Below are positions 1,112 to 44,955 of a stretch of 47,123 nucleotides of DNA, one piece after another; position 1 is the stretch's first letter; the number at the start of each line of letters is the position of its first letter. The position numbers were made by a program, and so were the translations under genes. A model generated the notes under the pieces. That model was not told where the DNA came from and made no database searches. It was given only the letters and a program-made list of their open reading frames with translations. Origin of the DNA: a bacterium (GTDB taxonomy: Bacteria > RBG-13-66-14). The stretch is from contig DATKYS010000030.1 of NCBI GenBank assembly GCA_035528375.1, positions 1 through 47,123 on the forward strand, given 5' to 3'.

Positions 1112-3292
1112 ATGAAAGCGCTTCACTTTGGCTCGATTCTACTCTTCCTGGTGTCGGCTGCTCCGGCCGGTCTGTGGCATATCGAAGAGGTGGATTACAG
1201 CGGCGCGTTAGGTTTCGGAACGTCCCTCGAGCTGGACGCGGACGACCAGCCGCTTATCGCGTACTACATGGATAATCAATTGATGCTCGCCCGGTGGGAG
1301 GCGGGGGGATGGAACATCGAGGCGGTTGTAGCAGGTGATTTTGGTGGTGAATCCATTTCCCTGACCCTGGACAGCCTGGACCTACCCCACATAGCTTATG
1401 TCGCGAATTGGCCGGCGGTGGACCTTAAATACGCCCACTGGACCGGAACCGAATGGCTGACTGAGACGGTTGACGGTGACGGATCCAGCGGCCCTTACTG
1501 TTCCATTGCAGTGGATTCGTCCGATAATCCACACATAGCCTATATGGATGTACAAGCCAACGGTCTGAAATACGCCCGTTGGGACGGCGACGAGTGGCTG
1601 CTCGAGATCATAGACACCGATGGCGCTTGTACGGACGTCTCGCTCGCGCTGGATTCGAACGACCGCCCCAACATATCATATACGAACAGGGACGCCGCTG
1701 AACTTAAATATGCGCGTTGGGACGGCTCCCAATGGTTGATCGAGACCGTGGACGGCGACGGTCCTTTCCGTACGTTTACTTCGATAGCCCTGGATTCGTC
1801 CGAACATCCCCATATCGCCTACGCTTACAACAGCAAAGGCGTCATCTACCAGAAATACGCCTACTGGGACGGGTCGGAGTGGCAGATAGAGAGAGCTGAT
1901 GGGGGGATTTCGAGTTTGGTTGGTGGTTATTGTTCAATCGCTCTTGATTCCACCGACCAACCCTACATCTCCTATTACAGACAACTTGATACCGTACTCA
2001 AATGCGCCCACAATGACGGCTCAGACTGGATTCCCGAGGTTGTGGACCCGGATTCTGGTTCCGGCAGGTATACCTCCATCGAGATTGATTCCCTCGACCA
2101 GCCCCATATCAGCTACGAAGGCTCACCTCCCGATTCCAAAGGTCTCCGGTACGCCTGGTACGAGGTCTCCTTTCATCTTTTAAGCCCCGGGAATGGCGAT
2201 ACAGTATACGCATTTCCCATTACGTTTGACTGGGAAGACCACGATCTTGACGGTCTCGAGAGCTACACCCTCTGGTGGGGGACCGATCCGGACTTCATCA
2301 CCTATAACGAAGTTACGGATATTGACGAGTCGGAGTATACGTTAGTTGGCGGCATCGAGGACGGGGACCGCATCTACTGGCGTGTGAAATCGCTGGACGA
2401 CGGGGACGGCGAGTACTGGGCCGAGGAGATGAATTGGTACTTCGACGTGGAATTGATCCAATTTCATCTCCTGGATCCAACGAAGGGCGAGGTCGTTGAT
2501 ACTCTTTCGCCACTCCTGGATTGGGAGGATTCCCCCGACTCCGACCACGAATCCTACACCCTCTGGTGGGGAACCGACCCGGACTTCGTTACCTACAATG
2601 AGGTTACCGGTATAAACGAATCTAAGTATACGATTCCGAGCGGAATCGGTGATGGGGACCGCGTCTACTGGCGGGTGAAATCACTGGACGACGAGGGCGG
2701 CGACTACTGGGCCGAGGAGCTGGACTGGTACTTCGATGTTGACCTGCCCGGCGGGATTGATCTTGCCGATTTCGGCGCGGGCGCGACCGACGAGGGCGTT
2801 CTCGTAAACTGGCGCTTCTCTGGCGAAGAGCCCACCGGGGTGCGCGTCCTGCGGGGCGTGGGCGAGCCGGAAGTTATATCAGGAAATTTAACCGGCGATT
2901 CATCCAGATACCTCGACCGGGATGTAGAACCCGGCGAGAGTTACGCCTACTGGCTGGAGGTCGTCGAGGCCGACGGGACTGTCGAGCGCTTCGGGCCGAC
3001 AGAGGCTGTCTCGGTCCCCGAGATAACGTTTGAGCTCGTCCTCTACGCCGCCTACCCGAGCCCGTCGCGGGACACCGTCAACTTCGCCTACTCCCTGCCC
3101 GCCGACGGCCGCGTCGTGCTATCGGTTTACGATTTATCGGGTCGGAGGATTGCGACGCTGGTCAACGACGAGCTGACCGCCGGTCGTCACGAGGCGTCCT
3201 GGAACTGCGCGGAAATCACCTCCGGCGTGTACCTCTACCGCCTGGAAACGAACGCGGGGTCGCTGACGAAGCGGCTGGTAGTCAGCCGGTAG
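1112..3292 (+). CDS. Large secreted repeat protein: signal peptide, about 8 propeller-like repeats (LDSxDxPHIAY...LKYARWDG), three FN3-like repeats, T9SS C-terminal sorting domain.
   Basis: N-terminal MKALHFGSILLFLVSAAPA signal. Repeats of about 44 aa with the motif S[IL]ALDSxDxPHI[AS]Y. Three copies of an about 95-aa repeat ESYTLWWGTDPDF[IV]TYNEVT. C-terminal CTD identical in pattern to ORF 2..874. Confidence 0.85.
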   Translation: MKALHFGSILLFLVSAAPAGLWHIEEVDYSGALGFGTSLELDADDQPLIAYYMDNQLMLARWEAGGWNIEAVVAGDFGGESISLTLDSLDLPHIAYVANWPAVDLKYAHWTGTEWLTETVDGDGSSGPYCSIAVDSSDNPHIAYMDVQANGLKYARWDGDEWLLEIIDTDGACTDVSLALDSNDRPNISYTNRDAAELKYARWDGSQWLIETVDGDGPFRTFTSIALDSSEHPHIAYAYNSKGVIYQKYAYWDGSEWQIERADGGISSLVGGYCSIALDSTDQPYISYYRQLDTVLKCAHNDGSDWIPEVVDPDSGSGRYTSIEIDSLDQPHISYEGSPPDSKGLRYAWYEVSFHLLSPGNGDTVYAFPITFDWEDHDLDGLESYTLWWGTDPDFITYNEVTDIDESEYTLVGGIEDGDRIYWRVKSLDDGDGEYWAEEMNWYFDVELIQFHLLDPTKGEVVDTLSPLLDWEDSPDSDHESYTLWWGTDPDFVTYNEVTGINESKYTIPSGIGDGDRVYWRVKSLDDEGGDYWAEELDWYFDVDLPGGIDLADFGAGATDEGVLVNWRFSGEEPTGVRVLRGVGEPEVISGNLTGDSSRYLDRDVEPGESYAYWLEVVEADGTVERFGPTEAVSVPEITFELVLYAAYPSPSRDTVNFAYSLPADGRVVLSVYDLSGRRIATLVNDELTAGRHEASWNCAEITSGVYLYRLETNAGSLTKRLVVSR

Positions 3293-17041: not shown

Positions 17042-17212
17042 CCCTCTCCCCTCTGGGGAGCGGCTCACCGACGGGCTAGGGAGGGGGGTTCATATCTCCT
17101 CGCCCCTTTGGGGAAAGGGATAGGGTGAGGGGTGAGATGTAGGGCGGCAGCTCTGTATGCCGCCCTCCTCAACGTTTTTCGGGCGGGGTACAGAGCCCCC
17201 GCCCTACAGGTT
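17042..17212. repeat. Composite repeat: two reversed ctctccc units (17042-17130) then two gtagggcgg hairpins (17136-17168, 17181-17210)
   Basis: gtcccctctcccctctggggagcggctcaccgacgggctaggg is the reverse complement of the unit seen at 3487-3541. atgtagggcggcagctctgtatgccgccct and gggcggggtacagagcccccgccctaca are both hairpins. Confidence 0.65.
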
Positions 17213-36451: not shown

Positions 36452-36482
36452 AAAAAGGGCCGCCCGCGAGCGGCTTTTTTAA
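36452..36482. terminator. Bidirectional terminator (second of two)
   Basis: aaaaaagggccgcccgcgagcggcttttttaa. Confidence 0.7.
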
Positions 36483-37045
36483 TAGAGGTCGAATGAGACT
36501 AATGTTCCGTCTATCATGTTTATCTCGACCCGCGCTAATTTGTCGAACGTCGGGTTGAAGAGGGTAATCCGCGCATCCGAACTGTACTCGCCGCAGAAGG
36601 CCTCGAATCCGTAACAAACGTCGTCCTCACGTCCAGTGATGTAGCGGTAGCAGTACCGCCCCAGCTCGAGCCAGTCCGCGAGATCGGCGGAGGTGTAGGT
36701 GAACGATATATCGTAGCTGTGATAATTTTCGTCCTCCATAACGGTGGTGCTTCCGTCGGGGTGGACGACGATGCGGACCAGGATGTCGGGGTCGTTGTAC
36801 CAGAAGCGCCAGTAGGGGTGCTGGACACCGCCGTAGAGGAAGCCCTGGATGTCGAGGTATGTGGCCTCGACCCTGAACATGACAAGGCTCTGGTCGTAGA
36901 AGTCCGCAATGACTCCGTCGGCAATGGTCCGCGCCCAGTCCAGGTCGCCCCCCTCAGTCGGGGTGACCTCGGTAAACGTGCTGCACCCAGCGAGGGCGAA
37001 GCCGACGATCAATGGGGGCAGCAACTTCTTGATGAAGGGTTTCAC
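36479..37045 (-). CDS. Hypothetical lipoprotein, paralog A of a tandem pair
   Basis: Lipobox GFALAGCS. Shares LDWARTIADGVIADFY, HPDGS and EDDVCYGFEAFCGEY blocks with the upstream paralog. GTG start overlaps the stop of 37045..37608 by 1 nt. Confidence 0.6.
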   Translation of the reverse strand: MKPFIKKLLPPLIVGFALAGCSTFTEVTPTEGGDLDWARTIADGVIADFYDQSLVMFRVEATYLDIQGFLYGGVQHPYWRFWYNDPDILVRIVVHPDGSTTVMEDENYHSYDISFTYTSADLADWLELGRYCYRYITGREDDVCYGFEAFCGEYSSDARITLFNPTFDKLARVEINMIDGTLVSFDLY

Positions 37046-37608
37046 TAGTAGAAGTTGAATCCCGTTATTTCGCCGGTTTGGGCAAGGAGATACGCCACGG
37101 CCAACCTTTCAAGATCAACATCATAAAGGCCGACCGCTACTAAATCGCAATTATCCATTTCCTCTTCACACCAGCAGTTCATTACATAGCAGACGTCGTC
37201 CGTCAGGCCGGTTAACTCCCGATACACGCGAGAGGCGGTCCGCAGCCACGAGGCGACGGCCTCGGAGCTGTACGTTGAATTTAGCGGAGATGCACCGTAG
37301 CCGTCAAACTCGAAGATGGAATACCGGCCGTCGGGGTGGATGATGACCCACAGCAACGTGTACGAGCCGTCGGAGTAGTACACGTCCCACTCGGGGAAGG
37401 GTATATCCTCGTACAGGTCGCCTGAAATATCCAGGTATTCGGCGCCAAAGGACGACACGTACCAGTGCTCGCCGTAGGCCAGGTCCACGGCGTCGCGGGC
37501 GATGGCACTGGCCCAGTCCCAGCCGGTGAGCCCGCCGTCCGCGCCGACGCCCAGGTCACACGCCAGCGCCATGAGCCCCACGAGCACGATGAGCCGGGTG
37601 ATGCGCAT
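37045..37608 (-). CDS. Hypothetical lipoprotein, paralog B of a tandem pair
   Basis: Lipobox LMALACDLG. WDWASAIARDAVDLAY, IIHPDGRY and TDDVCYVMNCWCEEE. About 30% identity to paralog A over the full length. Confidence 0.6.
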   Translation of the reverse strand: MRITRLIVLVGLMALACDLGVGADGGLTGWDWASAIARDAVDLAYGEHWYVSSFGAEYLDISGDLYEDIPFPEWDVYYSDGSYTLLWVIIHPDGRYSIFEFDGYGASPLNSTYSSEAVASWLRTASRVYRELTGLTDDVCYVMNCWCEEEMDNCDLVAVGLYDVDLERLAVAYLLAQTGEITGFNFY

Positions 37609-38195: not shown

Positions 38196-38413
38196 GACTC
38201 TGTCGGGATGAAATTCCGTACTCGACCGTCTATACTGCGTTGACCGGTGGGTATGGGAACCTCCCCACCGACCGTCGGCCCCGGGGCTCCCCCTCACGTG
38301 AGACAAGGAGACTGCGATGGACGGCCTCTTCGGGATTCTCGGCATCGAGCACGAGCGCCGGCCCTTCCGGTCGGGACGAGTTGGGGCCCGGTAAGCCTGA
38401 GCGGTTGGCTCGA

Positions 38414-38441
38414 GGGTGGTCCGCGGACCGCCCTTTTTTTA
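38414..38441 (+). terminator. Strong rho-independent terminator
   Basis: gggtggtccgcggaccgccc followed by seven T residues. Confidence 0.8.
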
Positions 38442-38456
38442 GCCCGCCGGTCGCGG

Positions 38457-38485
38457 TTGACACACCGCATTTCGGTGCATAGACT
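38457..38485 (+). promoter_or_regulatory. Consensus-like sigma70 promoter of the que operon with an embedded palindrome
   Basis: TTGACA (38457-38462), 17-nt spacer, TAGACT (38480-38485). The spacer contains the inverted repeat CACCG-cattt-CGGTG (38463-38477), a candidate operator. Confidence 0.6.
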
Positions 38486-38536
38486 TGGACCGCCTCCGCC
38501 GAAGGAGTTTTACTGGATCATCTGCCCCTGACACTC

Positions 38537-40444
38537 TTGAAGCTGCGCGACGGTCGCCTGGTTCCCTACGACAAGGAACGGGTCTCGGCCCAGGTGATGG
38601 CCGCCGCCCAGGCCGTCGGCATGGAGGACCCCCTCTGGCCCGCCGAGGTGGCCGAGGCGGTCACGCTCTACCTGCGGCGCAAGACCGCCACCGGCGTCCC
38701 CACCGAGGAGCAGCTCGAGGACGCCGTGGTGAAAATCCTGCTGCGCACGGGCCATGTGGACATGGCGAAGGCCTACGTCCTCTACCGCAGCCAGCGGCGG
38801 CTGGAGGAGGCCCAGGTCTTCGATCATCGCCTGACGACCCACCAGCTCGACCTGTTGGAGACCAACGAGGGGTCCATCCTGGTGCGGGACCTCTCGGGGG
38901 AGCTCTTCCCCTGGTCGCGCCAGGGGCGTATCTCGGCCATCGTCATCAACTCCGGCCTCGACCCGTCCATCGCCGAGCAGCTCGTCCTGGAGGTCGAAAA
39001 GATGCTCCGCGAGGCCAAGCTGTTTCCCGTTCCACTTCCCGTCATCCTCTCCCTCCACGCCCTGAAGCTCATCGAGCTTGGCGCCGGCTCCTACGCGGAC
39101 ATTGATCCGGTGGCGGTGCCGGCCCAGCTCGTCCGGAGTGCGCTCACCCAGGGGCGTATCGAGGACCGGACGCCCCGGGAGGCCGTCGAGACCTCCGGCG
39201 GCTACATCGTCGGGCAGTACGCCGTCTCCAACGTGTATCCCAAGTCGGTCCGCTACGACCACTACCACGGCAGCCTGCAGATTCGGTCCCCCCAGATGGT
39301 CAACCGCTTCCTCTCGGCCGGGTGGAGCCCGGAGGTGGGCCCGGAAATCGGTCTGGGGAGCTACACCACGGAGAGATGGCTGGAGCTGATGAGCCTGCCG
39401 GACCGCCTGGCACCCTATTTTTCCCGGATGGAGCTCCCGCGGTTCGACGTCCTCCTGGCGCGGCTGGGAGCCGGTTCCGGGATGGTGGACCTCGACGTCG
39501 CCGCCATGCTGGGGTTGCGTTTCTGGCCGTCCTCTACGGAGCGCCTGGTCATCGGCCTCGGCGCCGGGCTGGACACCTCGTCCGACCTCGCCGCTTACTC
39601 CCTGACCGTCGCCGGGCTGGTGGACCGTATGGACCGGCGGGTCGAGCTGGTAGTCGAGGTGGGGGAATCCTCCGACGAGGGATTCGTCGCAAAACTGGTG
39701 GAGGCCTCCGGGCGGGCGTGCCTGCGCTTCACCCGCCCCCGCGAGGTGCAACCTACGCCGAAGGCCGGGGCGGGGGACGTGCTCCGCAGCCCCGTGGCGA
39801 GCCGGGTGGCGGTCAACCTCCGGCGCGTCTCCACCTCCGGCGCGGGCAAGGCGGACCAGTTGGGAATCGAGGTCATCGGCCACGCCCTGGAGGCGGCCCG
39901 GGTGAAGGCCGATTTCCTGCGGTCGGTGGCCGGACGGCGCTCGTCCGGGGTGCTCGGAGGGCTGGTGGACGGCCTGGGTCTCGACTGGGTGAGCGCGGCG
40001 GCGGGAGTGGCGGAGCTCGAGCTCTTCGGCCTGGACACGGCCGTCTTCGAGCTGACCGGCGACTGGCCCTCCGGGAACCCGGAGTCGGCAAAACTCCTCG
40101 GGCGACTGGCGAGGAAGCTGGTCCGGGCGGCCCGTGATTTTTCCGAGAAGCTGGGGCTGACCCTCGTCGTCCGCGCCGGTGTGGACCCCGCTCTCGAGGG
40201 CTTCTTCGGGATGCTGGATCAGGTGGTGCTCGGCCTCCCGGCGCCGCCGCCATCGCTTTTCACCCTCTCGCCTGACGCGGCGCACCTCTTCCGCGGGCCC
40301 TACGCCCCGGCCTGGCCCGACGACGTGTCCGTGGAGCTCTGGACCGTCCTGGACCCGGAGTCGGCCCTGGCTTGCATTCGGACCGCCCTCGACGCCGGGG
40401 CGTCGTCGGTTTTCGTTCAGAAGGGCAACCCATGTATCTCTTGA
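38537..40444 (+). CDS. Protein with two N-terminal ATP-cone domains and an about 445-aa C-terminal region of unrecognised family
   Basis: MKLRDGRLVPYDKERVSAQVMAAAQAVG...VVKILLRTGH matches the ATP-cone pattern (hIKRDGxxExFDxxKI). A second ATP-cone-like repeat is ILVRDLSGELFPWSRQGRISAIVINSG. The C-terminal part has almost no Cys, so no RNR glycyl-radical or thiyl signatures. The TTG start is the first possible initiator after the in-frame stop at 38480. It overlaps the queD start by 13 nt. Confidence 0.65.
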   Translation: MKLRDGRLVPYDKERVSAQVMAAAQAVGMEDPLWPAEVAEAVTLYLRRKTATGVPTEEQLEDAVVKILLRTGHVDMAKAYVLYRSQRRLEEAQVFDHRLTTHQLDLLETNEGSILVRDLSGELFPWSRQGRISAIVINSGLDPSIAEQLVLEVEKMLREAKLFPVPLPVILSLHALKLIELGAGSYADIDPVAVPAQLVRSALTQGRIEDRTPREAVETSGGYIVGQYAVSNVYPKSVRYDHYHGSLQIRSPQMVNRFLSAGWSPEVGPEIGLGSYTTERWLELMSLPDRLAPYFSRMELPRFDVLLARLGAGSGMVDLDVAAMLGLRFWPSSTERLVIGLGAGLDTSSDLAAYSLTVAGLVDRMDRRVELVVEVGESSDEGFVAKLVEASGRACLRFTRPREVQPTPKAGAGDVLRSPVASRVAVNLRRVSTSGAGKADQLGIEVIGHALEAARVKADFLRSVAGRRSSGVLGGLVDGLGLDWVSAAAGVAELELFGLDTAVFELTGDWPSGNPESAKLLGRLARKLVRAARDFSEKLGLTLVVRAGVDPALEGFFGMLDQVVLGLPAPPPSLFTLSPDAAHLFRGPYAPAWPDDVSVELWTVLDPESALACIRTALDAGASSVFVQKGNPCIS

Positions 40445-40815
40445 CCGTTACGGGAAGCTTTTCCTCGGCCCACGCGCTGCGGGGCTACGGCGGTCCCTGC
40501 GAGCGACTCCACGGCCACAACTGGCGGGTCGAGGTGACCGTTTCCGCACCTCAGCTCGATGGGCAGGGGCTAGCCATTGACTTCAGGGTGCTCCGGGAGC
40601 ACCTGGGGAAAATTTGCGACCGGCTCGATCACCGATTCCTGAACGAGCTGGAGCCCTTCGACCGGCTCAACCCCACCAGCGAGATTTTGGCGAAATACCT
40701 GGCCGGGGAGCTTGAGTCGAGCTTGAAGGGCGCCGACGCGCCGGTCCGGGTACACGAGGTCCGCGTTTGGGAATCCGAGGGTGCCTCGGCCGCGTGGCGG
40801 AACGAGGAATCGTAA
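40432..40815 (+). CDS. queD: 6-carboxy-5,6,7,8-tetrahydropterin synthase (QueD/PTPS family)
   Basis: SFSSAHAL..CERLHGHNWRVEV..DHRFLNE are the PTPS Zn-binding Cys/His motifs. Confidence 0.85.
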   Translation: MYLLTVTGSFSSAHALRGYGGPCERLHGHNWRVEVTVSAPQLDGQGLAIDFRVLREHLGKICDRLDHRFLNELEPFDRLNPTSEILAKYLAGELESSLKGADAPVRVHEVRVWESEGASAAWRNEES

Positions 40816-41519
40816 TGAACGCGAAGACCCTCGTCCTCCTCTCGGGTGGGCTGGACTCGTACGGCGCGGCGGCCGAGCTGCGGGCCGGCGGTCAATTGGG
40901 CGCGACCCTGTGGGTGGATTACGGCCAGCTCGCCGCGGAAGGGGAGCGCGCGGCGGCGGAGTCGCAGGCGGGGGTACTGGGCGTTCCCCTGCGCGAGACG
41001 GAAACGGACCTCTACCGCGACCTCCCCCGCACCGGCGCCCTGATCGAGGGCGGGCTGGAGGACGACGCGGACGTCGGGCGGTTGTGGGTTCCGGCGCGTA
41101 ACGCCGTCCTCTTCAGCCTGGGGGCCGCCGTGGCCGAGTCCCTGGGGATGGCCGCCGTCGCGATGGGGTTGAACGCCGACGAGGCGGTGGATTTCCCCGA
41201 CAACAGCCCCTCCTTCCTCGCCGCCGCCGACCGCTTCCTCTTCCTCGCCACCGCCGGCCGGGTACAGGCCGTGTCGCCCACGGTGCACCGGACGAAGCGG
41301 GAGATCGTCGCCCGCCTGCTGGACCTCGGCCTCCCCCTGGACCGTATCTACTCCTGCTACCGTCCCCCCGACGCCCGCGGCCGGATGTGCGGGCGGTGCC
41401 CCAGTTGCCGGAGGCTCAAGGACGCGCTGTCGGCGAACTCAGGCGCCCGAGGGGTGGACCTCCTCGGCCGCTTCGCCCCTGCCCCCGGAACCTCCGCCGC
41501 CGGCGGGCGTACAGGATAG
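40815..41519 (+). CDS. queC: 7-cyano-7-deazaguanine synthase
   Basis: PP-loop VLLSGGLDS. C-terminal Zn motif CYRPPDARGRMCGRCPSCRRL. ATG overlaps the queD TAA (TAATG). Confidence 0.9.
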   Translation: MNAKTLVLLSGGLDSYGAAAELRAGGQLGATLWVDYGQLAAEGERAAAESQAGVLGVPLRETETDLYRDLPRTGALIEGGLEDDADVGRLWVPARNAVLFSLGAAVAESLGMAAVAMGLNADEAVDFPDNSPSFLAAADRFLFLATAGRVQAVSPTVHRTKREIVARLLDLGLPLDRIYSCYRPPDARGRMCGRCPSCRRLKDALSANSGARGVDLLGRFAPAPGTSAAGGRTG

Positions 41520-41523
41520 TGCC

Positions 41524-44500
41524 ATGCTGGAGCTCGGACAGGTTCTGGCGCGGGTGCGAAACCGGCTGAGGGCGGTGCGGTGGGCGCGGTGGGCGCTCCT
41601 CTTCCTGGTCGCCCTGGTCGCGCCGTTGCCTTTAGTTCTCTTCGCCGTCGCCGCCGGGCTGCCCTGGTTGCTGGGCTGGCTGGGCTGGCTGGTCGCGGCC
41701 TTTCTTCTATTTTACCGGCCCCTCCTCTCGCCGAGGGCGGTTTCGGCGAGCCGAGCGGACATCCCGCTGGCCGCGCGCACCCTCGAAGGTTCCGATACAT
41801 TTCTGGGCGACGAGCTCTCCTCGGCCGCCGAGCTCCTGGATTCACCGAACCCTTTCGCCCGGCTCCAGGTGCGGCGTGCCGAGAGGCTGCTGGCCGCGGC
41901 GAAACCCGACCTGGGAGACGTCTGGCGGAGCGAGCTCAGGCGCCCCCTGACCGGGGCCTTGGGGGCGCTCCTCGTTTTCGGTCTCGGGGTCCTCATCGGT
42001 CCGGGGAGCTACGACCTGGGTTGGCGCGGGATGTTGGGCGCGGACACCTCGCCGCCCGTCCCCCGGCTCATCGAGGTCGAACCGGGTAACCTCGAAATCG
42101 CTCCCGGGTCTCGTGTGACCGTCCGGGCCCTCTTCGATCACCCCCCCCGGGCGCCGGTCCTCCGGCACCGGCCCCTCAGCGGCGGACCCTGGCGGGAGAC
42201 CGCGCTCGAGCCGGTGGACGACCCGCTCGTCTTCGCCGCCGCGCTGCCGCCGCTGGAAGAACCCCTCGAGTACCAGGTGCTCCACGCCGCCGGCGCCGGC
42301 GAAAGGTACGCCCTCACCCTCCTGCCCTCCCCCCGGTTGAGCGGTCTGCGCCTGAAAATTACACCTCCGGCGTACACCGGCCTGCCCCCCCGCGAGCTGC
42401 CTCCGGGCGAGGGGAACGTCATCGCCCCCGTGGGCAGCCGCATCGGGCTCGAGGCGCTGGCGACGCCGGAGCTCTCCGCCGCCGGGCTCGAGTTCGAGGA
42501 ATCACCGGCCGTCCCGGTGGAGCCGCTCCCGCTGGCCGCCGGTTCCCGTCTGGCGACCTCCTTCACCCTCCGTCGGAGCGAGGGCTGGAATCTCCGCCTC
42601 ACCGCGGCGAACGGCCTCGAGTCCGCCACGCCGCGTTACCGCCTGGTGGCCCTCCCCGACGAGCCGCCTACCATCGTCCTCGACGAGCCCGGGGGCGCCG
42701 TGGACCTGGACATCACCATGACCGTCCCCCTCTCGGCGCGGGTGGCCGACGACTACGGTGTTTCCTCTCTCTCGCTGGTTTACTCCCGGCGGGGTGAGGG
42801 GGGCGGCGTCGGAGAGCCGGAGCGCCTGGTCATCGCCCGGAACCTCGGCCTCGTGGCCCGGGTGGATTACCGCTGGAATCTGACCGGGGTGGACCTCCTC
42901 CCCGGTGAGGAGCTCCTGTGCCGCCTGGAGGTAACCGACAACGACGCCTTCGCCGGTCCGAAGACCGTCCCGTCGGCGGGCTTCGTGGTCCGCTACCCCG
43001 GCATCGAGGAGATAGTGGAGGGGGAGACCTTCGCCGGGCCGCTGGACTCCCTCGAGGAGCTGGGGGAGCGGGAGGAGCGACTGGCCCAGCGGATGGAGGA
43101 GCTGGCCCGCGAGCACCGCGGCGAGGAACGGGTGGGCTCCGAGGAACAGAGGCAGCTCCGCCGGCTGATGGACGAGCAGGCGGAGGCGGTGGCCCGGGCC
43201 GAGGAGGTCGTCCGCCGGCTCGAGGACACCCTGAACACCCTCTACGAGAAGAACCTCATCACCCCCGAGAGCTTCGCCAAACTCTCCGAGGTGCAGGGGC
43301 TCCTGGAAAAGGTCCTGGACGAGCGGCTGAAGGAGCAGCTCGCCTCGCTGCAGCGGGCGGTTGAGAATCTGGACCGGGCCGAGATCGAGCGGCTGGCGGC
43401 CCAGTTCAATCAAACCCGGCAGGAGTTCGAGCGCAGTCTGGACCGGATGCTGGAACTCCTCCGGCGGGCCGAGGCGGAACAGCGGCTGACGGAGCTGGTC
43501 GAGCGGGCGGCCGAGGCCTCCGAGCGATCGGGGGAAATTCTCGAAGAGCCGAATCCCGAGGACGCCTCCGACCAGGCCGGTGAAATCGAGTCGCTCTCCG
43601 AGGAAGCCGAGACGGTCCGGGAGGCGCTCTCCGAGTTGGCGACCGTGGACGAGGACCTGGGCCGGGCGGCGGAGGAGGTGGGTGAGGCGGCGGCGGAGCT
43701 GGCCGAGTCCGGCGCGGCGGAGCTCTCCTCGCAGGCGGCGGAATCCCTGCAGGCCGGCGAATCCCGGTCGGCGCGGGGGATGCTGGGGCAGACCTCCCAA
43801 TCTCTGGGCCAGTTCCACCAGAGCCTCGCCGGGACCCTCGCCGAGCTGAGGTCCAGCCAACACCGCAAGCTCCTCGAGATGATAGCCGCTCAGGTCAACG
43901 CCTTGATTCTCCTCTCCCGGTACCAGGAGCAGGTCGTCGGCCTTATCGCGGGCCCCGGGTCCGCGGAGCGGAGCGGAGAAATCGGGCGGCGCCTGGCCTC
44001 CATCTCCGCCGGGGTGCGCCGGGTGGCGGTGAACCTGGAGGACGTCTACCGCCAGACCGTTTACCTGGACTCGGATCTCCTGGACCAGTTGGAGCAGCTC
44101 GCGGTCAGCCTGGATTCCAGCGCGGCCGAAATCGCCGCCGGGGAGAGGCCCAACGCCTCCCTCACCGGGCGCCAGCTCGCCACCCTCACGGCCGTCGGGC
44201 TCAAGCTCCTGGAGATACAGGGGCAGGCCATGAGCGCCGCTAGCTCCACGGGAATGAGTGAGCTGATGGCCGCCCTGGGGGAGCTGGCGGCCCGGCAGCA
44301 GGGGGTGAACCAGCAGACGATGCAGGGCGCGGGCGGGATGCCGATGCCCATGCCCGGCGGGTTCAACCTGGCGCAGCTCGCGGCCCGGCAGGCGGCGATT
44401 CAGCAGGGTCTCGGGGAGCTCGCGCAGAAGTACGGCGAGATGGAGGGCATGCTGGGTGATATTGGCGAGATGGCGTCCCAGGCGGGGGGAATCGAGGAGC

Positions 44501-44784
44501 TCCTGCGCGAGGGACGCCTCGGCGAGCCCACGCAACAGGAGCAGCAGCAACTCCTGCGGCGGATGCTCGACGCGCAGCGGTCGCTGAACGAGGAGGAGCT
44601 CTCCCGGCGAAGGGAGTCGCAGCAGGCGAGGCCCTACACCGTCCAGCCGCCGCCCCCGCTCGAGGTGGAGCGGCCGGAGGATTTTGGCGAGCTGCGGCCC
44701 GCCGATTCCCGGCTCGAGATAGGGATGTTCCCGCCCGAGTACCGCCAGGCCATCGAGGAGTACCTGCGCCGGTTGGGGGAGTGA
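41524..44784 (+). CDS. Large membrane-anchored protein: N-terminal double-TM anchor, repeated beta-rich domains, about 450-aa acidic coiled-coil/low-complexity C-terminus (DUF4175/BatD-like guess)
   Basis: Two hydrophobic helices in residues about 20-65. Repeated PxxYTGLPP/Ig-like segments. C-terminal E/Q/A/L-rich heptads. No Walker motifs. ATG is 4 nt after the queC stop. Confidence 0.65.
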   Translation: MLELGQVLARVRNRLRAVRWARWALLFLVALVAPLPLVLFAVAAGLPWLLGWLGWLVAAFLLFYRPLLSPRAVSASRADIPLAARTLEGSDTFLGDELSSAAELLDSPNPFARLQVRRAERLLAAAKPDLGDVWRSELRRPLTGALGALLVFGLGVLIGPGSYDLGWRGMLGADTSPPVPRLIEVEPGNLEIAPGSRVTVRALFDHPPRAPVLRHRPLSGGPWRETALEPVDDPLVFAAALPPLEEPLEYQVLHAAGAGERYALTLLPSPRLSGLRLKITPPAYTGLPPRELPPGEGNVIAPVGSRIGLEALATPELSAAGLEFEESPAVPVEPLPLAAGSRLATSFTLRRSEGWNLRLTAANGLESATPRYRLVALPDEPPTIVLDEPGGAVDLDITMTVPLSARVADDYGVSSLSLVYSRRGEGGGVGEPERLVIARNLGLVARVDYRWNLTGVDLLPGEELLCRLEVTDNDAFAGPKTVPSAGFVVRYPGIEEIVEGETFAGPLDSLEELGEREERLAQRMEELAREHRGEERVGSEEQRQLRRLMDEQAEAVARAEEVVRRLEDTLNTLYEKNLITPESFAKLSEVQGLLEKVLDERLKEQLASLQRAVENLDRAEIERLAAQFNQTRQEFERSLDRMLELLRRAEAEQRLTELVERAAEASERSGEILEEPNPEDASDQAGEIESLSEEAETVREALSELATVDEDLGRAAEEVGEAAAELAESGAAELSSQAAESLQAGESRSARGMLGQTSQSLGQFHQSLAGTLAELRSSQHRKLLEMIAAQVNALILLSRYQEQVVGLIAGPGSAERSGEIGRRLASISAGVRRVAVNLEDVYRQTVYLDSDLLDQLEQLAVSLDSSAAEIAAGERPNASLTGRQLATLTAVGLKLLEIQGQAMSAASSTGMSELMAALGELAARQQGVNQQTMQGAGGMPMPMPGGFNLAQLAARQAAIQQGLGELAQKYGEMEGMLGDIGEMASQAGGIEELLREGRLGEPTQQEQQQLLRRMLDAQRSLNEEELSRRRESQQARPYTVQPPPPLEVERPEDFGELRPADSRLEIGMFPPEYRQAIEEYLRRLGE

Positions 44785-44802
44785 GGGGAGCGCGATTCAT
44801 GA

Positions 44803-44955
44803 TGTAGGGCGGGGACTTTTGTCCCCGCCACTTTTTTACCCCTCACCCTTAGTTGCGATGGCGTAGGGCGGGGATTCCTATCCCCGCCGTTTTAACATTT
44901 CCTACCCCGACCCTCACCCTAACCCTCTCCCTAAAAGGGAGAGGGGACATGCGGG
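44803..44955. repeat. Composite repeat: two GATGnCGTAGGGCGGGGA hairpin elements, each followed by a T-run (terminators at 44807-44837 and 44866-44893), plus one ctctccc unit
   Basis: gggcgggga-cttttg-tccccgcc-acttttttacc. gggcgggga-ttccta-tccccgcc-gtttt. Unit ccccgaccctcaccctaaccctctccctaaaagggagaggggacatgcgg. Confidence 0.7.

Follow-up and report, generated by a model that had tools for sequence, protein, structure and literature searches.

We analysed a 47,123-nt bacterial contig (DATKYS010000030.1 of GenBank assembly GCA_035528375.1; the whole stretch is called the window below), which has a G+C content of 62.7%, and concentrated on a compact locus near its end that begins with a gene we call X. 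Four open reading frames (ORFs) follow each other on the + strand, at 38537-40444 (635 aa), 40432-40815 (127 aa), 40815-41519 (234 aa) and 41524-44784 (1086 aa). The tight packing described in an initial annotation, which had been made from the letters alone, was confirmed by direct reading of the junctions: X and queD overlap by 13 nt, queD and queC overlap by 1 nt (TAATG), and queC is separated from the 1086-aa gene by a gap of 4 nt. As will be seen, X is very probably an inactivated paralogue of NrdD, the class III ribonucleotide reductase (RNR), which has kept its ATP-cones and is strictly linked to queD and queC in Candidatus Coatesbacteria. The features of these three genes are:

38537..40444, + strand: gene X, 635 aa, NrdD paralogue with ATP-cones (NCBI name 'ATP cone domain-containing protein')
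38546..38800, + strand: ATP-cone 1, X residues 4-88 (PF03477, 51.4 bits against a cutoff of 25.8, model positions 6-87 of 88)
38870..39091, + strand: degenerate second ATP-cone, X residues ~112-185, placed by position homology to the second cones of P0022 and P0019
39092..40441, + strand: remnant of an NrdD-type alpha/beta barrel, X residues 186-635, without HxHD, finger-loop Cys, bottom Cys, Zn ribbon and glycyl-radical domain
39800..39826, + strand: SRVAVNLRR, X residues 422-430, aligned with the 'VTLNLPRIA' strand of NrdD; Asn427 is invariant
40432..40815, + strand: queD (6-carboxytetrahydropterin synthase), 127 aa (PF01242, 125 bits; TIGR03367, 91.1 bits against a cutoff of 89.25)
40815..41519, + strand: queC-family gene, 234 aa, with an atypical signature (PF06508, 124.5 bits; TIGR00364, 108 bits, below the cutoff of 150)

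Gene X and its NrdD ancestry

The part of X that follows the cones had been described as having an unknown fold. This proved wrong, as a profile search, an AlphaFold 2 (AF2) model and motif alignment all identify these ~450 aa as a degenerate NrdD-type barrel. We searched 1.84 billion representatives with a profile built from the C-terminal 450 residues; the family of X itself amounted to just 4 clusters, and the next matches were proteins of 590-770 aa (E 4e-7 to 1e-3), of which 8/8 scanned carry PF13597 (NRDD). The relationship to NrdD is visible solely in such a profile search (E 4e-7 to NRDD proteins). Neither PF13597 nor the NCBIfam NrdD equivalogs recognise X directly; Pfam matches the ATP-cone alone, and the NCBIfam NrdD matches span residues 3-113 only, far under cutoff. 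The ten-stranded alpha/beta barrel of the RNR/glycyl-radical enzyme fold was found in X, whose AF2 model has a pLDDT of 70.8, rising above 85 across most of residues 420-630.

We aligned the motifs of X with those of the bona fide NrdD P0017 and of the S. thermophilus and P. copri structures. The sequence HYHG (242-245) of X aligns with 'AHxxG' of NrdD, and Asn427, within the strand listed above, is presumably the counterpart of the NrdD active-site Asn. The KRxF, G-L-x-E and RFxxLD motifs are kept. X thus shares with class III NrdD of the two-cone subtype (PF13597) both the domain order (cone, cone, ten-stranded alpha/beta barrel) and the core motifs, including NLxR with its Asn. In contrast to NrdD, X has none of the catalytic elements. 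At the position of HxHD, the motif that binds the substrate triphosphate in NrdD (PMC11226230), the proteins of the three family clades described below have LQIRS, LQVHR or IAIDK. The finger loop, which carries the thiyl Cys in NrdD ('LGECYRL' in P0017, 'MGCRSF' in S. thermophilus), is shortened and has no conserved Cys in all X family members, and the 'N-C-C' position with the bottom Cys is N256-R257. The protein, ~150 aa shorter than NrdD, stops at the last barrel strand, before the Zn ribbon (CxxC...CxxC) and the RxxGY glycyl-radical motif that are seen in P0017. A small radical-SAM gene of the nrdG type was sought in all loci and none was found; the sole ORF with CxxxCxxC, a 539-aa SPASM protein in locus L020, was rejected as unrelated. 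The loss of HxHD, of both active-site Cys residues, of the Zn ribbon and of the glycyl-radical domain indicates that X is a catalytically dead NrdD paralogue. The absence of RNR Cys and Gly-radical signatures had been noted before, and our alignments agree with it. Judging by the sequence, the ancestor of X would be of the class III RNR type with two N-terminal ATP-cones.

The second of these cones is the less certain. While the first is a clear PF03477 match, Pfam found nothing in cone 2 (residues 105-190) even at E<=10, and hhalign gave no significant match between cone 2 and cone 1. Cone 2, however, aligns with the second cones of the NrdD-like proteins P0022 and P0019, which match PF03477 at 31.7 and 21.8 bits, and in the AF2 model it is folded as a beta-hairpin plus three helices. 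Of the 'tandem ATP-cones' of the initial annotation, the first therefore stands on its own match, and the second on the alignment to P0022 and P0019. The nucleotide ligands of the ATP-cone in PcNrdD are K7, R8, R11, Y83, R87 and R91 (PMC11226230); cone 1 of X keeps R7 (equivalent to R11 of PcNrdD), Y83, R84, and R87 and/or R88.

The start of X is uncertain. Its homologues start ~8 codons upstream of 38537, and close relatives open the gene with TTG-CTG-GAA-AAG (M-L-E-K-L-P-L-T-L-L-K; region 38507-38539 of the window). In the window the codon at the start of the relatives is TTA instead of TTG, which places the conserved PLTLL residues upstream of the TTG (38537) that is annotated as the start. 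Translation may begin from CTG at 38513, or the N-terminus may be truncated in this genome.

Linkage to queD and queC and the pattern of constraint

The X family is small and narrowly distributed. It comprises 16 proteins at 90% clustering among 5.8 billion; in species genomes we found 8 loci in 7/185,579, the named genomes all being Candidatus Coatesbacteria, and JGI metagenomes gave 9 loci. No relatives were found in viral contigs, and a phage origin of X was rejected for this reason. By identity to the window protein the family falls into clades A (71-91%), B (43-47%) and C (34-38%). X is followed directly by queD in 17/17 distinct loci that extend downstream, and queC comes next in 16/17 (the remaining locus, L011, ends within queD). 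In most loci X and queD either overlap by 13 nt or are 0-12 nt apart: clade A has the 13-nt overlap, clade C a spacing of ~12 nt, and in clade B the two genes are adjacent or up to 83 nt apart. Upstream of X, clade A has serine hydroxymethyltransferase (SHMT), two small genes and RNase T, clade B a zinc-ribbon protein or a transposase fragment, and clade C a 182-aa unknown protein, with Usp and MnmE downstream. As the flanks are wholly different between clades, the conserved unit is the three genes X-queD-queC, not four. The initial annotation had regarded an ATP-cone protein hard-wired to queC and queD as unusual; this linkage is indeed conserved among homologues of all three clades and in different surroundings, although the four-gene unit it had drawn is not.

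The assignments of queD and queC made in the initial annotation were supported by TIGR03367 and PF01242 for the former and by PF06508 for the latter. The CxxxHGH motif of QueD reads 'CERLHGHNW' in 6/6 orthologues. The motifs of QueC were compared with the signature of Libby et al. 2026 (PMC13329287). Canonical features that are kept are SGGLDS (SGGxDS), VPARN (VPxRN) and the Zn-binding cysteines, C(x)10CxxCxxC, where the canonical spacing is x8. The YxQxHxxE motif is replaced by YGQxAAxxE, in which the His is missing and the Glu is shifted, and which corresponds to the Y/FxQ(x)5E variant described for Cap9 (PMC13329287). YPDC is replaced by F[PA]DN, so that the aromatic residue of this motif, which is essential (PMC13329287), is kept as Phe. 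The best PDB sequence match of QueC was Cap9 (9nto_B, E 5.7e-13), against 1.7e-6 and 1.2e-5 for canonical QueC structures. We noted that the X-linked QueCs (window, L001, L002, L003, L009 and L010) form a distinct group, having in common YGQxAAxxE, F[PA]DN, C(x)10CxxCxxC, scores under the TIGR00364 cutoff and, in PDB sequence searches, a closer match to Cap9 than to canonical QueC.

Canonical QueC is marked by a neighbourhood with queD and/or queE, and adjacency to queD, its hallmark, is not seen in clusters of its paralogues; queE is found close to just 26% of canonical queC genes (PMC13329287). Here every locus has an adjacent queD, and no locus an adjacent queE. The genes folE, queE, queF and tgt, which had been reported as absent from the window, were found neither among its ~45 ORFs scanned with Pfam nor in any fetched flank. 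An Rfam scan of the window and of the short 5' leader gave no match, including no preQ1 riboswitch. The locus thus resembles canonical operons of the queCDEF type for synthesis of 7-cyano-7-deazaguanine (preQ0) in bringing together QueD and a QueC-family enzyme with the SGGxDS, VPxRN and Zn-Cys motifs, and differs from them in having no queE or queF, no preQ1 riboswitch, an atypical QueC and a dead RNR as the first gene.

We then compared conservation across the locus, taking identity between the window protein and clades B and C (the most distant members), and dN/dS within clade A. Cone 1 of X had an identity of 63-72% and a dN/dS from 0.03 to 0.14-0.17, and cone 2 of 47-55% and 0.08-0.21. 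In the barrel, the N-terminal half was 17-20% identical (dN/dS 0.22-0.35), with large deletions in clade B, and the C-terminal half 35-40% identical (dN/dS 0.24-0.40). For comparison, the values were 59-62% and 0.15-0.22 for QueD, and 55-62% and 0.25-0.26 for QueC, while the neighbouring SHMT gave a dN/dS of 0.12-0.13. No sequence in the neighbourhood is more constrained than the cones of X. The low dN/dS and the pattern of conservation argue that X is a functional protein, in which the half of the barrel that holds the HxHD and bottom-Cys motifs in true NrdDs is drifting.

X is not the only NrdD relative in this state. The NrdD-like proteins P0039/P0056, P0019-P0022 and P0025-P0031 lack, like X, the finger Cys and the glycyl-radical C-terminus, and both they and the relics P0100, P0106 and P0109 (470-520 aa) have, like X, tandem ATP-cones together with a decaying NrdD barrel. 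The first cone of P0039 closely resembles that of X (LIRTGHDRMAKAYILYRHKR in P0039, LLRTGHVDMAKAYVLYRSQR in X). Unlike X, these proteins either still match PF13597 or have lost more of the barrel, and none has an adjacent queD or queC. P0039, one of the nearest outgroups of X, overlaps nrdR, and the other, P0021, lies close to nrdR; in locus L004, queA is found ~2.5 kb downstream on the opposite strand. P0100 (518 aa, the barrel almost gone) overlaps a gene for a YchF-like GTPase in four independent contigs, and some other relics stand alone. The retention of cones while the barrel decays, beside partners as varied as NrdR, a YchF-like GTPase and QueD/QueC, seems to be a recurring pattern, which fits a sensor role. 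The relic loci are L005 2014-4552, L004 4245-8419 and L022-L025 (for example, L022 7001-9473). All of these relics are uncharacterised, and some are annotated as 'anaerobic ribonucleoside-triphosphate reductase' though apparently inactive; such annotations would mislead metabolic reconstructions of candidate phyla. The analysis thus exposes several unstudied lineages of relic NrdD, beside NrdR, YchF or QueD/QueC.

Possible roles of X

RNRs and ATP-cones are textbook examples of the allosteric control of nucleotide pools. We propose, with a probability that we put a little below one half (about 0.45), that X is an RNR-derived, nucleotide-sensing regulatory or scaffold subunit that gates QueD and QueC. 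X would be co-transcribed, and in several lineages translationally coupled, with QueD, which converts 7,8-dihydroneopterin triphosphate (H2NTP) to 6-carboxytetrahydropterin (CPH4), and with the QueC-family enzyme, which would turn 7-carboxy-7-deazaguanine (CDG) into preQ0 in an ATP-dependent reaction. The cones may bind adenine nucleotides, by analogy with the ATP-cones of RNRs and NrdR. Binding would shift the conformation or the oligomeric state of the dead barrel, and this change would switch the associated QueD and/or the ATP-consuming QueC on or off. As the outcome, synthesis of 7-deazaguanine, which uses GTP as the precursor and consumes ATP, would be coupled to the nucleotide pool. Oligomerisation driven by ATP-cones is an established mode of regulation in RNRs of all classes and in NrdR (PMC11226230, PMC9110341). 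A regulatory or scaffold subunit best accounts for a dead enzyme that keeps highly constrained allosteric domains and is co-expressed stoichiometrically with two enzymes. The initial annotation had offered three guesses at function, namely nucleotide-sensing control of queuosine/preQ0 supply, a non-canonical replacement of a missing pathway step, and a 7-deazapurine-based modification or conflict module; the conservation pattern favours the first.

Unlike NrdR, a repressor made of a Zn ribbon and an ATP-cone, X has no DNA-binding Zn ribbon, and unlike the ATP-cone-bearing NrdB of Leeuwenhoekiella it has no radical-generating domain; its partner enzymes are those of the deazapurine pathway instead of RNR. 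The inactive R1 homologues of herpesviruses (for example, BORF2, 7rw6) are also among the closest known systems. In the literature we found no description of a dead NrdD, of an association of ATP-cones with QueC, or of an RNR with 7-deazaguanine, and no report of a protein regulator of preQ0 synthesis; the pairing of a dead NrdD with queD-queC is previously unreported. To our knowledge the preQ1 riboswitch is the sole control element of preQ0. An operon of a dead NrdD with QueD and QueC throughout a phylum suggests either a protein-level nucleotide sensor for 7-deazaguanine synthesis or new chemistry on an RNR scaffold.

Several observations weigh against a regulatory subunit. The second cone is not recognisable by Pfam, and in the first the Lys-Arg dyad (K7/R8 in PcNrdD) is L-R, L-T and L-E in clades A, B and C, respectively, so that canonical binding of (d)ATP by the cone is not assured. 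All family members belong to one phylum-level group, which means that synteny by inheritance could account for part of the linkage. The absence of queE from every locus leaves room for a catalytic role of X. Furthermore, the barrel is under purifying selection and has invariant polar residues (H242, N256, R257, R397, R423, N427, R430, K457, E493 and D561), which would also fit a new ligand-binding or catalytic site. Nucleotide binding by X, its physical association with QueD and QueC, and the regulatory effect are what we infer from the locus.

In a broader alternative, the barrel would have taken on a new ligand-binding or catalytic role in 7-deazapurine chemistry (binding or converting CPH4/CDG, and replacing or recruiting QueE) or, with the atypical QueC, would form an ATP-cone-gated module that conjugates deazaguanine. 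We consider this unlikely; if true, it would be the first time in bacteria that an RNR scaffold serves a purpose other than nucleotide reduction, and the first known control of the synthesis of a queuosine precursor by an allosteric protein. The more specific proposal that X is a new enzyme of the 7-deazaguanine pathway, which replaces QueE (CPH4 to CDG) or GTP cyclohydrolase I or adds a step to the product, is less likely still. Here a new cofactor or substrate would occupy the space vacated by the glycyl-radical domain. Such an enzyme would fill the place of queE and folE, neither of which is present in the window or any fetched flank, and would suit the position of X as the first gene of a biosynthetic operon, translationally coupled to queD, as well as the purifying selection on the barrel (dN/dS 0.22-0.40) and the location of invariant polar residues, including S422, R423, N427 and R430, on strands that line the active site in NrdD. 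However, none of the known radical machinery is left, nor is the HxHD phosphate site, and no conserved Cys or His cluster exists that could form an Fe-S or metal site. Nor does the N-terminal half of the barrel, at 17-20% identity and with large deletions (P0012 lacks ~90 residues), resemble the scaffold of an active site. Finally, queE and folE are often unlinked to queC and queD, as the figure of 26% given above for queE illustrates (PMC13329287).

It is also conceivable, though with a slightly smaller chance, that the adjacency means nothing, and that X serves the regulation of dNTPs or RNR, as do its relatives beside NrdR, and came to lie upstream of queD-queC by chance in one lineage. This would agree with the closest outgroups, P0039 and P0021, which adjoin or overlap nrdR and lack que genes beside them, and with the restriction of the family to Coatesbacteria-like genomes, in which synteny may be inherited. 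It does not readily explain why the three-gene order survives across clades A, B and C, where all the surroundings have changed, or why, in most lineages, the genes overlap or lie <=12 nt apart; nor was an NrdR box found in a search near the X promoter.

The least probable of the readings, which we think rather improbable, is prompted by the best PDB match of QueC to Cap9. The QueC-family protein would be a Cap9/QatC-like ligase that attaches CDG to a protein or amine, with X as its target or nucleotide-sensing partner in a signalling or conflict module, a reading that draws on the low TIGR00364 score, the Cap9-type motif and the altered YPDC, and on the fact that the QueC paralogues of Qat and type IV CBASS share operons with the proteins they modify. 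Against it, none of the loci carries a TGT-like Cap10, a CD-NTase or a QatA/B/D gene, and X, QueD and the 1086-aa protein are without a conserved Gly tail at the N-terminus of the kind borne by known targets. The adjacent queD is a hallmark of canonical QueC (PMC13329287), the QueC is full length (217-234 aa against ~185 aa in Cap9), the neighbourhood is syntenic and of the housekeeping kind (SHMT, RNase T, Sua5, RpiB) rather than a defence island, and no relatives were found in viral contigs.

Other features of the locus

The remaining features of the transcription unit are:

41524..44784, + strand: 1086-aa membrane protein, no Pfam match; a clade-specific neighbour outside the conserved core
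38457..38485, + strand: sigma-70-like promoter TTGACA-17-TAGACT (10/12 positions in a consensus scan; hexamers kept in L001 and L011)
44808..44839 (hairpin 44808-44829), + strand: intrinsic terminator-like hairpin GGCGGGGAC-TTTT-GTCCCCGCC plus T-run, GC-rich, built on the GTAGGGCGGGG repeat

The 1086-aa protein was modelled by AF2 with N-terminal transmembrane helices, three Ig/FN3-like sandwiches and a helical region of ~540 residues, and Foldseek with this model returned generic Ig-tandem matches only. We detected 15 homologues. The gene is on the same strand as X in clade A and convergent, on the opposite strand, in clade B (47% identity), and no copy was seen in clade C, where the sequenced flanks reach 6-9 kb past queC. 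The initial annotation had treated the four genes as one operon unit, and this variation in orientation and presence does not support a conserved unit of four. The gene for the 1086-aa envelope protein probably bears no relation to the others and is transcribed with them in clade A alone. The clade B homologues, at L009 3767-6988 (-) and L020 13562-16513 (-), remain near queC though co-transcription is impossible there. In an unrelated operon, a remote homologue lies behind a DUF4159 gene. A link to the 1012-aa protein after the NrdD relic P0039 was considered and rejected, as the two are unrelated, and a PADLOC match to LmuB (E 7e-7) was set aside because it covers the coiled coil only.

The near-consensus promoter proposed upstream of X was recovered in our scan, as one of 2 promoter-like sites found against 0.3 expected. 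Its hexamers are conserved in L001 and L011, and its spacer is not. The palindrome CACCG-N5-CGGTG in the spacer, which had been likened to an operator, is partly kept in L011, 89% identical (CACCG CTTTT TGGTG), and is absent from L001, 71% identical, despite the kept hexamers; we therefore rejected it as an operator. A terminator at 38412-38435, upstream of X, separates the operon from the preceding DNA.

At the other end, the hairpin terminator said to be built from a repeat element is present as described, the hairpin being built on GTAGGGCGGGG and followed by the T-run. The intergenic repeat GTAGGGCGGGG has 6 exact copies in the window, at 17197, 18309, 18344, 22560, 44804 and 44863, and further copies with 1 mismatch. 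The two copies examined, 44804 and 44863, fold as GGCGGGGA...TCCCCGCC hairpins, of which one is the operon terminator. The element resembles a REP-like element.

Between the RNase T gene and the X promoter (region 38208-38435) lies an ORF of 25 aa, MDGLFGILGIEHERRPFRSGRVGAR, at 38318-38395 (+). The ORF is furnished with a promoter-like site of its own (ATGAAA-17-TATACT), a Shine-Dalgarno sequence and, upstream, a conserved stem, and the terminator mentioned above (38412-38435) belongs to it. L011 and L001 (MISLFGVLEVTYERKLFRSKRLWAN) conserve the peptide and show synonymous changes; it could be a small protein or a leader peptide.

Further upstream, the ORFs at 36479-37045 and 37045-37608 (-) encode abutting paralogues of ~187 aa with lipoprotein-like N-termini and no Pfam match, and the same pair is found in L001 and L011. 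At the beginning of the window, the ORFs at 2-874 and 1112-3292 (+) encode two proteins that end in a Por_Secre_tail domain (type IX secretion C-terminal sorting), which suggests an export route of the type IX secretion system (T9SS) kind in this Coatesbacteria genome.

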